In this document: piece after piece, positions 27,361-57,651 of the stretch
Layout: each line of letters starts with the position of its first letter
Numbering within the stretch: the stretch's first letter is position 1
Origin: Octopus vulgaris
Lineage: Eukaryota
Length of the DNA stretch: 64,000 bases
Reading direction: 5' to 3'
Assembly: GCA_951406725.2 (NCBI GenBank)
Contig: OX597819.1
Location: 41,478,001-41,542,000, forward strand
Translations under genes and position numbers: made by a program
The notes under the pieces: model-generated
The model's database searches: none
What the model saw: only the letters and a program-made list of their open reading frames with translations
What the model was told of the DNA's origin: nothing

Positions 27361-27693
27361 ATATATAATAGAAAATTACTATTTGTAAATCTCTCAACGT
27401 GAGGAATTCAGTAACAGTACTCTAGAGAAAAGATTATTTGCCAACATAACGTAGCAGCCCTGGTTAGGACGAATGCTACAGCTGGCTATACGATACTATC
27501 TGTCTCCTTATATTTTCGAACATGGGATGTTAAACTCCCTTGTTCAAAACAGGAATGCCAAACTCCTTTGTTCGAAAATATAAGGACACAGATAGTGTGT
27601 CGTATAGCCAGCTGGAGACGATGTTTCCTGGGGCTAATAGCAGTAGCATTTGTCCTAACCAGGACTGCCACGTTATGCTGGCAAATAATCTTT
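27361..27693. mobile_element. Fold-back non-coding element, structured-RNA family member 1
   Basis: Inverted arms 27429-27522 / 27569-27693 plus a unique left tail. Homologous by eye to the 39.1-kb and 57.3-kb elements. Flanked by TA/TACA repeats. Confidence 0.75.
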
Positions 27694-28962
27694 ACTATAC
27701 ATACATACATATATATATATATATAATATATATATATATATATATATATATATATAAATAAATAAATATAATATATATATATATATATATATATATATAT
27801 ATATATATATATATGTATATAAATATATATATGTGTGTGTGTGTGTGTGTGTGTATGTATATATATGCATGTATGTTTATATATATAAAACGGCTAAAGA
27901 GATAGAAACGCTGCTTCTGGGAATCCGACTGGAGGTAGCACTGGGCAGATATGGTATTTTCACACTTTTTACTAAGAGAGAATTTTTCTGTTCACGGTAA
28001 CTGCAGCGAATTTGTCTTTAGAAGTTGAAATATGTCGCAAACTTATTTAACAAACCTAATGTTCGTTTATGCTTAAACACTGCTTGGTGCTGATACAGCA
28101 GAATATATATGTGTGTGTGTGTGTGTGTGTGTGTATGTGTGTGTGTGTGTATACTCACACAACTATATACACATACATACATACATACATACATACATAC
28201 ATACATACACACTCACTCGTACACACATCAAAGAAAATATGAAATATATCTATGTTACTGTTTTAAAAATTCAATCTTTATTCAAGAAATAATAACCACC
28301 TACGCACACACAGTCACTCACAATCTCTCTCTCTTTCTCTCTCACGCAGACACACAAACACACACACACACACACATACTATCACTCTTCCTCCCACACA
28401 CGCACACAATCACTCACAGAGAGTCAATCACATGCTATGTATATGCACATACAGGCGTACATATATGCACACGCATGTGTGTATTCATACTGTGATGTAT
28501 TAAAGAAATCGACAATGAATTCACTGTGTGAAAAATGCCTCAAGTGTATTCCACCATACACATCACACCAGTGTATAATTGGTTTCAAATTTTGGCACAA
28601 GTCCAGCAATTTCATGATCAACTGGTCCTTATTTTATCGACTCAGATAAGATGAACGGCAAAGTCGACCTTGGCAAAATTTGAGCTCAAAACGCAAAGGC
28701 CGACGAAATGGCGCCATCCATCTTGTCCGGTGCGGTAACGATTCTACTAGCACACCGCCCTACATTTGTATATAATCACAAGCACATTTCTACAAACGTA
28801 CACACATACAGCACGATAACAAATACGCATGCCCGCACATTTTTTATAGCTTGCAGACATACAATTAGGTTTTTATCTAAAACAGAATATATTTCCCGCC
28901 CAACAGTAACTTCTATGTCTCTCTAATTACATATTGTCTATAACAGTTACTTTTTGATTTTA

Positions 28963-31900
28963 TTAGATATCTTTGTTGGACAAGGTCTGTACCTCTGTCA
29001 GCTGGTATTTCTTTTCTATACCAACCAGACCACAATCCACGATTTTCACAGTTGTAAAAGGAACTGCGGTGTCCTTGTCAGACTTAACATTTCCGATTAT
29101 TTCTATAACATTCTGCAAAATAAGAAAAAAAAGAAAAGAAAACTTATTAAAACAATTACGGTATTTCTGGCATACACATCAACGTTGTATATTGTGCAAA
29201 CATGTAATGTAAACAATCAAGCATCATCCCTATCTTTCCAAGTCCTGTTGCATTTCACGTGGAATGTCCTCCAGTCGACCTACAATTTTGGTTGTAAATT
29301 TTGCTCAGAAAAATTTGACTTATATGCCGGAGATACACTTTATATTTATTTCTTCATTGTATGCAAAACATTACAATTACAATAGTTACAACACATAAAG
29401 ATGATTTCGTAGCATGTACCATGACTTTGCTATTTGTTTTATTTCCTTATGGACATGCAGTATGACAACTGGAGGGAAAGGGGGATGCACCGGAAACTCG
29501 GCTGGTATTCAATTCGGCTGAGTGAACTGGAGCTAACAATGCAGAATGAAGTACTTTCAAGGACACGGCCTGACACCTGGTTCAAAAATCTAATCTACGA
29601 CCTTATAATTGATTGTGAACCCAACGCTCTAATTACAAGGTCAAGCACCTTCACATTAGAATCATTCGACATTTGCCAGAAGAGTATCCATAACTTTTCT
29701 ATTTACCATGGAGGAGTAAGTGAAGCTGTTTTAATTGGTGATTGAAACAGGGTCTCGAAATCCATTTACCGAGAATCTAATTATTCATGCTACACTAGCT
29801 AGAATTTAGGGTTGTTTTGATCTCCACTCAGTTATCTTATCAATTGTATATAGCTGATAGCTCACAAACTATGTAAAAAGTTTGTATCTTCAGTCGTCAA
29901 TTATATTCACTAACCAGGTTAGGAAAACCAATGAAACTACAGCAAAATTTAATCGCAACCCACAATCTGTAGTATTAAGTATTGGGTTGTCCGGAAAGTT
30001 CGTGCTGATTTTTAAAGGAAAGAAAAAGGTCAATAAATACTTGCCATTATATTTTTAATCAACCAAATATGAACCATTTTGTTGCACAATGCGTTTCTAT
30101 CTTTCTTTTAACTTGAAAATACCCTCTTCCCAGAATTGAGGTGGTTTCATGGCAAATAATTCATCAAGGTATCTTTTTATGTCATCCAAGAAATTGAAAT
30201 TTTTACCATTAAGACTATTCTGCAGAGACCTGAATAAGTGAAAATCCGAAGGAGCAATATCTGGTGAATATGGAGGGTGGGGTAACACATCCTAGCCGAG
30301 CTGCAGCAATTTTTGTCTGGTTCCCAAAGTATTAAGTGCCAAAAATGAAATTTCTTATCTTCCATTTTAAAGGGTTACAGAATTAACACAGGTTATAGGA
30401 ACATAAATCTTCTTCCACGAAAAGATAGCTTAAACTGTGCTCTAAATGGAGGTGTAGTGAAATCCTATTTTATGGACTCAACCATGTTCTAAAATAAATC
30501 GAAATGTAAGCTACTATAAATCGGCACGAACTTTCCGGACAACCCAATACATAGTGTTAAAAGTCATTAGATAACGTTATCTGATATATTTTATTCCTAA
30601 ATGTTTTTAATTATGTTTGTTTTCTTCGATCAAAGTCGGCTTTGAGTTAAGCAATAACAACGATCATGCTTAGCCTTCAGATTCTGCGCTGACCACTTTG
30701 GAGGTGACTAAATAGTTTACATATACTACGGGTTGTCGGTAAGGTGGCAGGGTCAAAAAGCAACTACTTGGAGGAGTTGTTTAGGAGTCAGAGTGAATGT
30801 CATGTTCTATTTGTTCTGACTCTTTGGCGGTCTGGGCTCAAATCCAACCGAAGTGAACTTTTTACCATTTGCCCTTTCGGGGTCAAAAAATAAAGTAGCA
30901 GTCCAGGTCCTGAACGGTGGATTGGTGGAAGTGTTAGATCGTCGAACGAGGTGCTTTGTGCTATTTCTTCTGGGTTCTGGGTCTTTGTGTTTTGAGTTCA
31001 AATTCCGCCATCGATAGCCAGAATTAATCACCCATCAAGGGAAACATAAACTGGTTATTGCAGCAGAACGATTTTGTTGTTGTTGCTGCTGCTGTTGTTC
31101 TTGATGATGATGATGATGATGATACCGACGACGACGACGACGACGACGATGGCGAAAGCGATGATGATGGTGATGATGATGATTACTACGAAGACAATGA
31201 CGGTGATGATTATAAGACGATGATGACAATGATATTGACGATGATGATGAATATGATGATGACAAGCTGTATAACAAAATATCTCATCACGACACGCCAT
31301 CATCATTATCTCATTTCCATTAGCCGCATTCTCAGAATCCGAAGCAGTTGATTTGTAGTGTTCAATTTTTGTCCGTTTTTCTTTTCTTTCTTTTATTTTC
31401 TTTCGGTCCAGTGACTGAGACAAATGGTAAGTAGTTACTCTTTTATTCTTTTACTTGTTTCAGCCAATGGACTAGGCCCTGTGGTGGGCACCACGATGTA
31501 GAGTTTAGTTGAAGAAATCGACCCTTTACTCTTTTTTTTACTTGTTTTCAGTCATTTGACTGCGGCTATGCTAGAGCACTGTCTTTAGTCGAGCAAATCG
31601 ACCCCAGGACTTATTCTTTGTAAGCCTAGTACTTATTCTATCGGTCTCTTTTGCCGAACCGCTAAGTTACGGGGACATAAACATACCAGCATTGGTTGTC
31701 AAGCGATGTTGGAGGGACAAACACAGACACACAAACATATACACACAGGTATTTATGTACATATATACGACAGGCTACTCTCAGTTTCCATCTACAAAAT
31801 CCACTCACAAGGCTTTGGTTGGCCCGAGGCTATAGTAGAAAATACTTGCCCAAGGTGCCACACAGTGGGACTGAACCCGGAACCATGTGGTTCGTAAGCA

Positions 31901-56601: not shown

Positions 56602-56801
56602 AGGCGGCGAGCTGGCAGTATTTCGTCTGTCGTTACGTTCTGAGTTCAAATTCCGCCGAGGTCGACTTTGCCTTTCATCCTCTCGGGGGTCGATAAATAA
56701 AAATACCAGTTTTGCACTGGGTCGATGTAATCGACTTAATCCCTCTGTCTGTCCTTGTTTGTCCCCTCTATGTTTAGCCACTTGTGGGTAGTAAAGAAAT
56801 A
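56602..56801 (+). mobile_element. SINE (Meta-like core) with internal deletion and 15-bp TSD
   Basis: TATATAACATCTGGT on both sides; head GGCGAGCTGGCA joined directly to GTATTTCGTC. Confidence 0.85.
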
Positions 56802-57261
56802 TATATAACATCTGGTGAAAACTGAAGTAAACATTAATGGGAGACAACCATTTTTACCATGGCTCATGAATGAATAGCAACTACGTAGAGATTTCCTTGT
56901 TAGTTCAGAATGGTTTTGTATTTTTAGCAAAGAGGCTTTTGTTAACTTAAGTACTATGTCCTCTGTTTCGATACTGAAACTAAGTCAATTGAACCAGTGT
57001 ATAATAAATAGATTATATATTATATACTATATAATAAATCATATATAATAAATAATAATTATATATAATAATAATAATTATATATAGTAATAATAATAAT
57101 TATTATTATATATACTATATAATAAATAATATATAATACATAATAATGATAATAATAAATATATAGTAATAAATACTATGATAAATAGATTATATATTAT
57201 ATACTATATAATAAATCATATATAATAAATAATAATAATTATATATAATAATAATAATAAT

Positions 57262-57651
57262 AATTATAGAAATATTAAAATTACTAAGTCTCTATAAAAG
57301 AGATTACGGCAGCGTTTACTGGAAATTAATTGTTATCGCCATATTAATATGGCATTCTTATAGATATAAGAATAATCGCTACCGCTGGTCAGCTCCATGA
57401 GGCCACCGCCATCAAGATAGCTATTGATACACGATCTGTATCCATTATAACCTTCGAACAAGGGAGGTCAGCTGCTTCACACTGCCAGTCCGACAGCTAC
57501 AGACGCGTTTTTTCTTGTTCGAAGGTTATAATGGATACAGATCGTGTATCAATAGCTATCTTGATGGTGGTGGCCTCATGGAGCTGACCAGCGGTAGCGA
57601 TTATTCTTATATCTATAAGAATGCCATATTAATATGGTGATAACAATTAAT
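57262..57651. mobile_element. Fold-back non-coding element, structured-RNA family member 3
   Basis: 138-bp arms 57325-57462 / 57514-57651 (2 mismatches), 51-nt loop, unique left tail. Set in TAA/TA low-complexity DNA. Confidence 0.8.

Follow-up and report, generated by a model that had tools for sequence, protein, structure and literature searches.

Transcripts of tandem retrozymes cleave themselves, acting as dimers in the case of a short palindromic stem III, and are then ligated into circles. The reverse transcriptase (RT) of Penelope-like elements (PLEs), to which that of telomerase is related, initiates internally at two sites, the spacing between which forms the genomic 'tail'; in the telomerase RNA core, a long-range helix closes the loop that holds a template-like single strand. 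Metazoan non-LTR retrozymes of coral, mussel (350-390 nt) and axolotl (330/350 nt) are described in the available part of PMC7229834, which names PLEs only as candidate mobilisers. According to the accessible text of 10.64898/2026.07.22.740005, eight of nine frog retrozymes were without in vitro cleavage, and the mechanism of retrozyme mobilisation remains to be elucidated.

A window of 64,000 nt of Octopus vulgaris DNA (the whole stretch analysed) contains three insertions that an earlier note had described as diverged fold-back elements sharing an RNA structure. They are 5'-truncated, tail-to-tail copies of three homologous hammerhead-bearing tandem-repeat families (F27, F39 and F57), i.e., non-LTR retrozymes, an assignment to the metazoan class made from genomic sequence, with circular RNA and cleavage as predictions. 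Their shared module comprises the helices P1 and P2, the long-range P3, whose loop contains P4, P5 and an AU-rich linker, and P6, which is hairpin C. Two end sites were defined: S1 lies inside the loop that P3 closes and precedes the 3' strand of P3 by 2-14 nt; S2 follows hairpin C, 28-60 nt past the start of that strand. The parts of the insertions and of two further homologous families in the window, which the note did not list, are as follows.

27367..27520, minus strand: F27 inverted arm, from the rod interior to P1, P2 (partly deleted), P3-P5, the P3' strand and hairpin C (P6); stops at S2 in (TA)n
27552..27699, plus strand: F27 direct arm, with P1 27585-27601, P2 27605-27636, P3 5' strand 27641-27647, P4, and P5 27666-27683; stops at S1 in (TA)n; truncated copy without hammerhead
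39070..39341, minus strand: F39 inverted arm, with hammerhead 39330-39286 and the entire module; stops at S2
39340..39767, plus strand: F39 direct arm, a partial unit and one complete 357-nt unit (39411-39767), with P3' 39417-39423, P6 39430-39442, P1 39641-39657, P2 to 39693, P3 5' 39701-39707, and P5 39732-39751; stops at S1
39551..39595, plus strand: F39 type I hammerhead motif, with stem I, variant core (U3, G8), stem II with U-U at its base, and short near-palindromic stem III; predicted cleavage after 39589
57262..57510, minus strand: F57 inverted arm, from the hammerhead 3' half through the entire module (P3' 57314-57307, P6 57303-57289); stops at S2 in TAA/TA repeats
57514..57651, plus strand: F57 direct arm, with P1 57534-57550, P2 57553-57587, P3 5' 57592-57599, P4, and P5 57623-57638; stops at S1
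7212..7550, plus strand: F7, an older homologous family, with decayed hammerhead and entire module
26028..26204, minus strand: F26, a homologous family, module only; stops at S2 in (TA)n

All motifs named in the earlier note, including hairpins A, B and C and the long-range helix, were present. In the F27, F39 and F57 copies, hairpin A lies at 27585, 39641 and 57534, the CCTGGGGCTAA / CCTCATGGAGCTGA segments at 27627, 39684 and 57574, and the long-range helix at 27641, 39701 and 57592 (5' strands) and 27415(-), 39417(+) and 57314(-) (3' strands). The segment following hairpin A belongs, as its 3' strand, to an additional helix, P2, which the note had missed and which is the best-covarying helix of all. 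An inverted self-copy was seen in each insertion, and taking the 3' helix strand from the inverted left arm was valid, because tandem copies elsewhere hold both strands within one unit. Pairwise BLASTN among the three insertions gave no match at E ≤ 1, but each copy was recovered by sequence HMMs from which its own family had been left out, confirming the proposed relatedness despite divergence: the model without the F39 and F57 families detected the 39-kb copy (E 7e-23) and the 57-kb copy (E 1.5e-13), and that without the 27-kb clade and the F39 family detected the 27-kb copy (E 1e-21).

The hammerhead reported upstream of the module in the 39-kb member was found (core at 39551(+), second copy at 39330(-)), yet it does not set this member apart, as full units of all three families have one, and the truncation points of the 27-kb and 57-kb copies fall within the motif or short of it. 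Motif scans revealed hammerheads in F39, F57, F27, F26, F87, F7, F253 and F184, giving one type I motif per unit as in retrozymes, with non-canonical U3-G8 cores included. The cores vary across families between C3-G8, U3-A8 and U3-G8, and the palindromic stem III differs in sequence. The F39 hammerhead had no match in Rfam, and its minimum free energy structure was not that of a monomeric hammerhead. Two points count against the reading preferred below: F39 has a non-canonical core, U3-G8, and in vitro cleavage was lacking in eight of the nine frog retrozymes mentioned above.

Genome-wide, a first search yielded 1671, 3891 and 1432 candidates for the three families, with 40 scored per family, and the module pattern had 11,226 exact matches compared with one for the control. 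Tandem periods of 357 and 364 nt were found, and 341-365 nt in further families; these are short (150-450 nt) tandem genomic repeats of the non-LTR retrozyme kind, dispersed at high copy number, as retrozymes are, in a genome that also holds autonomous PLEs. Young families are among them, with copies 96-100% identical. Discovery relied on DNA and pattern searches, which are biased to relatives of known families and miss more distant ones. Since the references for locus annotation included flanking SINE sequence, only matches to the ORF or hammerhead region were counted. No PLE ORF was found inside the repeat units, and the F39 unit, the one read as a circle, has stops in all six frames, ruling out an endless ORF on the 357-nt circle. 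The genome-wide copies thus bear out the view of non-autonomous, ribozyme-bearing, microsatellite-targeted retroelements with structure at the RNA level.

At E ≤ 1, the window elements had no Rfam match except a chance miRNA match, nor did four full-unit loci match at the gathering threshold. The class is already described (non-LTR retrozymes in PMC7229834, the PLE link in 10.64898/2026.07.22.740005), and this is therefore not an unrecognised kind of element. A metagenome pattern scan returned two loci, each matching the 33-nt P2 pattern only and judged to be chance. Comparison of the contigs of four runs, which are not recorded as RNA, with an F39 array revealed a 390-nt record in run X1, in which the sequence of the start recurs at the end, giving one 359-nt unit and an overlap, and a second 390-nt record in X5, about 90% like F39. 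A tandem DNA repeat would look identical, and the records are therefore not evidence of circular RNA.

For analysis of covariation, 20 family representatives were aligned by sequence only (59% identity). RNAalifold recovered P1, P2, P3 and P5 from this alignment, in which 92.4% of 616 cells were paired, compared with 30-48% in slid controls. The pairing that the earlier note took to be preserved is supported by two-sided change in 16 of the 31 predicted pairs; in a tree-aware G-test, the three top covarying of 11,935 column pairs were all predicted pairs, although only one passed E < 0.05. The F187 row, truncated in P1, was kept for RNAalifold and the pair counts and dropped for the G-test. 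P5 had one two-sided change and P6 none, so that hairpin C is conserved, as had been claimed, but without compensatory changes. Folding of the F39 module was no better than that of shuffles (z 0.08), and antisense circles scored z as low as sense circles in four of six families.

Many copies are long inverted repeats, as would be expected of MITE-like fold-back elements with hairpins arising at the DNA level by template switching and not by RNA selection. We regard this explanation as very improbable: the two inverted arms are unequal to one another, each cut short at a random 5' position, and meet head to head, the hammerhead motif is on one strand, conservation in the helices extends to internal loops and G-U pairs (41 G-U versus 22 A-C by hand count from the G-test table, in cells, not events), and both the tandem units and the strand-specific ends contradict it.

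Tail-to-tail inversions were present in 117 of 240 elements, head-to-head inversions in none. Within the S1/S2 windows, which span 46 of ~360 nt and were set after a first view of the end positions, 317 of 357 3' ends and 17 of 123 free 5' ends were located. Insertions mostly end within the module, which is not the 3' terminal piece it had been taken for. Among scorable inverted insertions, 91 of 95 combined S1 with S2 and four used the same site twice (22 more had one unclassified end); pattern-found loci alone gave 38 versus 3. A TA-like flank no more than 6 nt from the end was found for F39 in 36/42, F57 in 35/48, F27 in 27/77 and F7 in 1/19 cases, the F27 and F7 reference copies being decayed or shorter. 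The insertions lie in (TA)n or AT-rich microsatellites and have an inverted 5'-truncated arm with a tail at one end only, both as in PLE-mobilised elements. The two fixed end points likely mark where a Penelope-type enzyme begins copying the RNA into the genome, and their position in the module lends support to the putative role of RT-recognition signal put forward earlier.

A Neptune-type PLE family in this genome, the 3' end of which is linked to an RT-CxxC-GIY-YIG ORF, had S1+S2 ends in eight of eight inverted insertions, and another Neptune-type family has intact 781-aa ORFs. With filters off, no module was found in Neptune pseudo-LTRs. As Neptune ends follow the S1/S2 rule without the module, the module is not copied from the partner's signal.

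The absence of the module from the partner's ends would also fit selection of the module for another RNA step (circle stability or folding, ligation, transcription or transport) in the same PLE-mobilised retrozymes, the RT priming at any two AU-rich single-stranded stretches that chance to be there. The conserved branched fold predicted for the whole unit and not the module alone, in which a long rod has the hammerhead at its tip, is in line with this, as is the description of metazoan retrozyme circles as highly self-paired in the available part of PMC7229834. Further AU-rich stretches, from P6 to the rod, however, seldom serve as ends, and S1 holds its place 7-11 nt before the P3 3' strand across families only ~45% identical, and we consider this explanation unlikely.

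Three insertions (L089, L099 and L308) fuse a retrozyme arm to a Neptune-type arm without a (TA)n spacer. L089 joins an F57 arm ending at S2 to a tail-less Neptune end, each 98-100% like its own family, and L099 joins an F7 arm at S2 to a fragment of the Neptune endonuclease in inverted orientation. L308 could also have arisen by insertion of a young Neptune that removed its target inside an older F7 copy. Chimeras were few, numbering two among ~240 retrozyme elements and one among 19 other Neptune loci. Four loci with Neptune near a retrozyme and (TA)n between them (L190, L062, L088 and L017) were excluded. The chimeric insertions point to Neptune as the helper.

None of the sampled ORF-bearing PLEs had the module at its 3' end. 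Across 30 GIY-YIG loci, the one strong match was a separate (TA)n-flanked insertion, and 20 Hydra-like loci yielded nothing beyond the F27 insertion already recognised as separate and a single match that was weak and distant; at these Neptune-type and Hydra-like loci, no sense-orientation module was found at the end of an RT + GIY-YIG ORF. The Hydra-like family, having its own hammerhead and a different 3' end, was ruled out as a module carrier. The repeats could still be solo pseudo-LTRs or 3' ends of an unsampled autonomous PLE clade (e.g., Naiad, Poseidon, Nematis or an extinct family) that moved in cis and not as Neptune parasites, given that scoring covered only 150 of 6136 GIY-YIG candidates, with 43 stretches around them examined, and that frog retrozymes resemble pseudo-LTRs of annotated PLEs in the accessible text of 10.64898/2026.07.22.740005. 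This is improbable in view of the tandem succession of units, of module copies that at none of the examined loci run upstream into a PLE ORF, and of the inverted orientation of L099, the sole direct ORF junction.

Taken together, we favour, with a probability of about 0.7, truncated tail-to-tail retrozyme insertions whose covarying module likely presents two start sites to a Neptune-type RT-endonuclease, which would insert them into (TA)n by twin priming (PMC11167929, PMC8557442 and the available part of PMC7229834). Retrozyme RNAs would be cleaved and then circularised; a Neptune protein dimer would nick both (TA)n strands; two cDNAs would be primed, one at S1 and one at S2 of separate and not necessarily identical RNA molecules; the RT could run round a circular RNA, giving tandem copies; and the two truncated cDNAs would be joined head to head. 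The module would be retained for docking the RT and for keeping S1 and S2 single-stranded. More tentatively, and with the odds somewhat against it, the module may be a dedicated RT-docking RNA that evolved on the parasitic circular RNA and was not taken from the helper, with the long-range helix enclosing the S1 template loop, the flanking hairpin setting S2, and the Neptune dimer priming the nicked strands, one per site, on separate RNAs. If true, animal retrozyme mobilisation would thereby gain its first defined cis-element, and the closest retroelement relatives of telomerase would be using a solution like that of telomerase RNA.

The S1+S2 rule, valid across different RNAs in scorable chimeras, constrains the mechanism of PLE integration, and a compact RNA inserted in trans into (TA)n by a PLE enzyme would be of interest for retrotransposon-based insertion tools. 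Young families, intact Neptune-type ORFs, chimeras, predicted start sites and a base-pair RNA model for which natural compensatory variants exist make retrozyme mobilisation open to direct biochemical test.

Compared with metazoan non-LTR retrozymes as covered in the available part of PMC7229834, the octopus families share non-coding tandem units of ~350-365 nt with one type I hammerhead each, thousands of dispersed copies, a predicted self-paired circle, PLEs with minimal hammerheads in the same genome and, with axolotl HHR_Amex2, the U-U at the base of stem II. Peculiar to the octopus families in this comparison are the compensatory multi-helix module over many families, the two-site end map, the strict S1+S2 inversions and the chimeras with an autonomous element. 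The class itself is established; no account of the module, the end map or the partner evidence turned up in the accessible published text, although the supplements to PMC7229834 and 10.64898/2026.07.22.740005 may show a similar fold.

With PLE pseudo-LTRs (PAc Poseidon, PMC11167929; PMC8557442), the octopus elements share AT-rich or (TA)n targets, an inverted 5'-truncated arm, two ends per family with a one-sided tail between them, and a hammerhead upstream of the start sites. They differ in having no ORF, a tail of 40-60 nt compared with 30-40 nt, no sequence match to sampled PLE pseudo-LTRs, and S1 within the loop of a covarying long-range helix, whereas the start site of PAc Poseidon lies in an AC-rich stem-loop inside the ORF (PMC11167929). 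The analogy with telomerase RNA is loose, as the model of the module has no pseudoknot and involves no repeat synthesis. For vertebrate retrozymes, the accessible text of 10.64898/2026.07.22.740005 likewise proposes the PLE machinery as mobiliser; that case builds on co-occurrence and pseudo-LTR similarity, whereas the octopus retrozymes are unlike their partner's pseudo-LTR in sequence and are tied to it by insertion anatomy and chimeras.

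The three insertions at about 27, 39 and 57 kb of the window were confirmed on reading as non-coding elements in TA/TAA repeats, each with a partial inverted self-copy, and every motif that the earlier note had named was found where it had been placed. The relevant features of the window are as follows.

20796-21497, 22171-22809, 46055-46594 and others: tandem repeats of ~184 nt, SINE-like
27030-27356: separate fold-back insertion, directly adjoining the 27-kb element
27361-27693: 27-kb element (family F27)
32222-32761 (-): peptidyl-prolyl isomerase gene of cyclophilin type, one exon
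39071-39767: 39-kb element (family F39)
42367-42450: tRNA match
47038-49686 (+): LINE ORF, 883 aa, encoding endonuclease and RT domains
57262-57651: 57-kb element (family F57)

The retrozyme elements may lie in or near introns of the isomerase gene. The SINE-like repeats frequently adjoin retrozymes in (TA)n tracts, and the end of the fold-back insertion beside the 27-kb element resembles Neptune-type 3' ends found elsewhere in the genome.

Pairwise BLASTN among the three elements revealed no link, whereas sequence HMMs built with relatives left out did. The 39-kb and 57-kb copies were recovered at E 7e-23 and 1.5e-13, respectively, by a model lacking family F39 and clade F57, and the 27-kb copy at E 1e-21 by one lacking the F27 clade and F39. 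An HMM of four rows from the F7 clade, a distant family also present in the window, recovered all three elements, with E from 6e-8 to 2e-7. We conclude from these comparisons that the elements are homologous; the relationship claimed for them despite their divergence is real.

Searches of the 2.8-Gb assembly gave 1671, 3891 and 1432 first-look candidates for the families of the three elements (40 scored each), and two additional module families were found within the window and more genome-wide. At other loci, units form head-to-tail arrays with periods of 357 and 364 (341-365 in other families). Upstream of hairpin A, complete units have a type I hammerhead motif. Its core is C3-G8, U3-A8 or U3-G8, and its stem III is short and palindromic, with a sequence that varies between families; this stem III arrangement is the one given for dimer-acting hammerheads in the accessible text of PMC4209133. 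The F39 unit, read as a circle, has stops in all six frames. Tandem hammerhead units of the ~350-nt class without an ORF (F39 tested) match metazoan non-LTR retrozymes as portrayed in the available part of PMC7229834, and we assign the elements to this type with a probability of about 0.9. An F39-like subfamily of 86% identity (L335:57-734) is possibly the variant behind two assembled contigs of 390 nt that are ~90% like F39. Five F26 copies on one contig (L107-L111) share common flanks and represent a segmental duplication, not independent insertions.

In an alignment of 20 natural copies representing families and subfamilies, made on sequence alone (mean identity 59%, lowest 42%), RNAalifold predicted P1, P2, P3 and P5, with two-sided change in 14 of 26 pairs. 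Hairpin A (P1), the long-range helix (P3) and hairpin B (P5) of the earlier note were thereby recovered; P2, whose stem contains an internal loop, had been left unpaired there. A 31-pair model showed 92.4% of 616 cells paired, compared with 30-48% when partners were slid by 1-3 columns, and two-sided change in 16 pairs (60 cells). Counts of this kind are inflated by relatedness, and the alignment, less row F187 (19 rows), was therefore put through a G-test with average-product correction in which 40 null alignments simulated on the tree served as the comparison. Each of the three highest-scoring column pairs, out of 11,935, is a predicted pair: one lies in P2 (E 0.025, ~4 independent events), one in P3 (E 0.95) and one in P1 (E 1.65). 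Covariation in P1-P3 is supported, modestly in formal terms; of the pairing-preserving changes previously claimed for the other hairpins, P5 showed one two-sided change and hairpin C (P6) none. P4 is variable in length; it is missing from one family (L203:214-415, L261:1039-1240), which offers a natural deletion of use in defining the minimal module. The P2 pattern matched the genome 11,226 times, a lower bound because it misses F39 and F26, against one match for the reversed control. Folded singly, the 57-kb and 39-kb modules each yielded P1, P2, P3, P5 and P6, with z-scores of -3.8 and 0.08, respectively. The predicted folds of complete units have a common branched shape that includes a long rod with the hammerhead as its cap; antisense z-scores were as low as sense in four of six families tested.

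Mapping of outer ends on tandem references revealed two clusters in each of the seven families first examined, after which the limits of the two sites were chosen. S1 precedes the 3' strand of P3 by 2-14 nt and sits in a single-stranded linker that P3 encloses in the predicted fold, and S2 lies 28-60 nt after the start of that strand, beyond hairpin C. Among 240 distinct elements (117 tail-to-tail inversions, 123 in single orientation, none head-to-head), 138 3' ends fell in S1, 179 in S2 and 40 outside both, and free 5' ends fell in the two sites at the chance rate (17/123). The inversions combined S1 with S2 in 91 cases and used the same site twice in four; 22 had an unclassified end. At loci found by pattern and not by an end-bearing query, 143 of 167 ends lay in S1/S2, with 38 S1+S2 inversions versus 3 same-site ones. 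All three window elements obey the S1+S2 rule.

GIY-YIG Penelope-like elements (PLEs) numbered 6136 candidates genome-wide (150 scored). Among them are elements with an intact 781-aa RT-CxxC-GIY-YIG ORF, a minimal hammerhead and (TA)n targets, which were assigned to the Neptune type solely from the CxxC linker as described in the accessible text of PMC8557442. The 781-aa family (L213-L221, e.g. L213:1245-3587 +) is young and has many open RT-endonuclease ORFs, preceded by an ORF1. Its 3' UTR contains tandem subrepeats, its minimal hammerhead has a U3-A8 core, and the small hairpin of its optional tail loosely resembles hairpin C; scanning its inversions for S1/S2 gave no scorable pair. A short motif at the tail starts of L330, L334, L342 and L217, common to two Neptune-type families with ORFs ~50% identical, is a candidate recognition signal of the helper itself. 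An abundant decayed PLE family (L133-L152, 5427 candidates), which we take to belong to the Hydra-like clade, carries a hammerhead of its own and shows two different 3' ends, each at (TA)n.

In three insertions (L089, L099, L308), an inverted retrozyme arm is joined directly to a Neptune-type arm. The retrozyme arm of L089 and L308 ends at S2 and the partner has no tail, as the S1+S2 rule predicts. In L089, the arms are age-matched, and the partner end comes from a young family that is linked to an RT-CxxC-GIY-YIG ORF in L329, L342 and L348 and whose own inversions are S1+S2 in 8/8. L308 may instead reflect a later insertion that was accompanied by a deletion, and L099 has lost its far end. 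The earlier note had suggested looking for the module at the ends of ORF-bearing PLEs; a search with model R1 found none at the ends of sampled Neptune-type or Hydra-like elements, which counts against a simple pseudo-LTR origin. Mobilisation of the retrozymes by PLEs is very probable, a Neptune-type helper is likely, and a role of the module in RT docking or initiation, for which telomerase RNA may offer a loose analogy, is slightly favoured.

In the proposed cycle, tandem arrays would be transcribed, and the transcripts presumably cleaved by the hammerhead and ligated into circles. A Neptune protein dimer would bind the retrozyme RNA and nick both strands of (TA)n, priming would occur at S1 on one side and at S2 on the other, and the two truncated cDNAs would be joined.

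The retrozyme class is already known, and its link to PLEs is argued in the accessible part of a 2026 preprint (10.64898/2026.07.22.740005). A literature search, with most subscription journals outside its reach, turned up no paper on retrozymes of octopus or other cephalopods, and no account of a conserved retrozyme module linked to RT start sites or of chimeras between retrozymes and PLEs. According to the available text of the respective sources, PLE insertions carry a "tail" on one side (PMC8557442), and in anole Poseidon, whose protein is modelled as a dimer that nicks AT-rich DNA on both strands, the tail extends from one internal RT start site to the other (PMC11167929). The S1-S2 stretch of the retrozyme insertions corresponds to this one-sided tail as these portions describe it.
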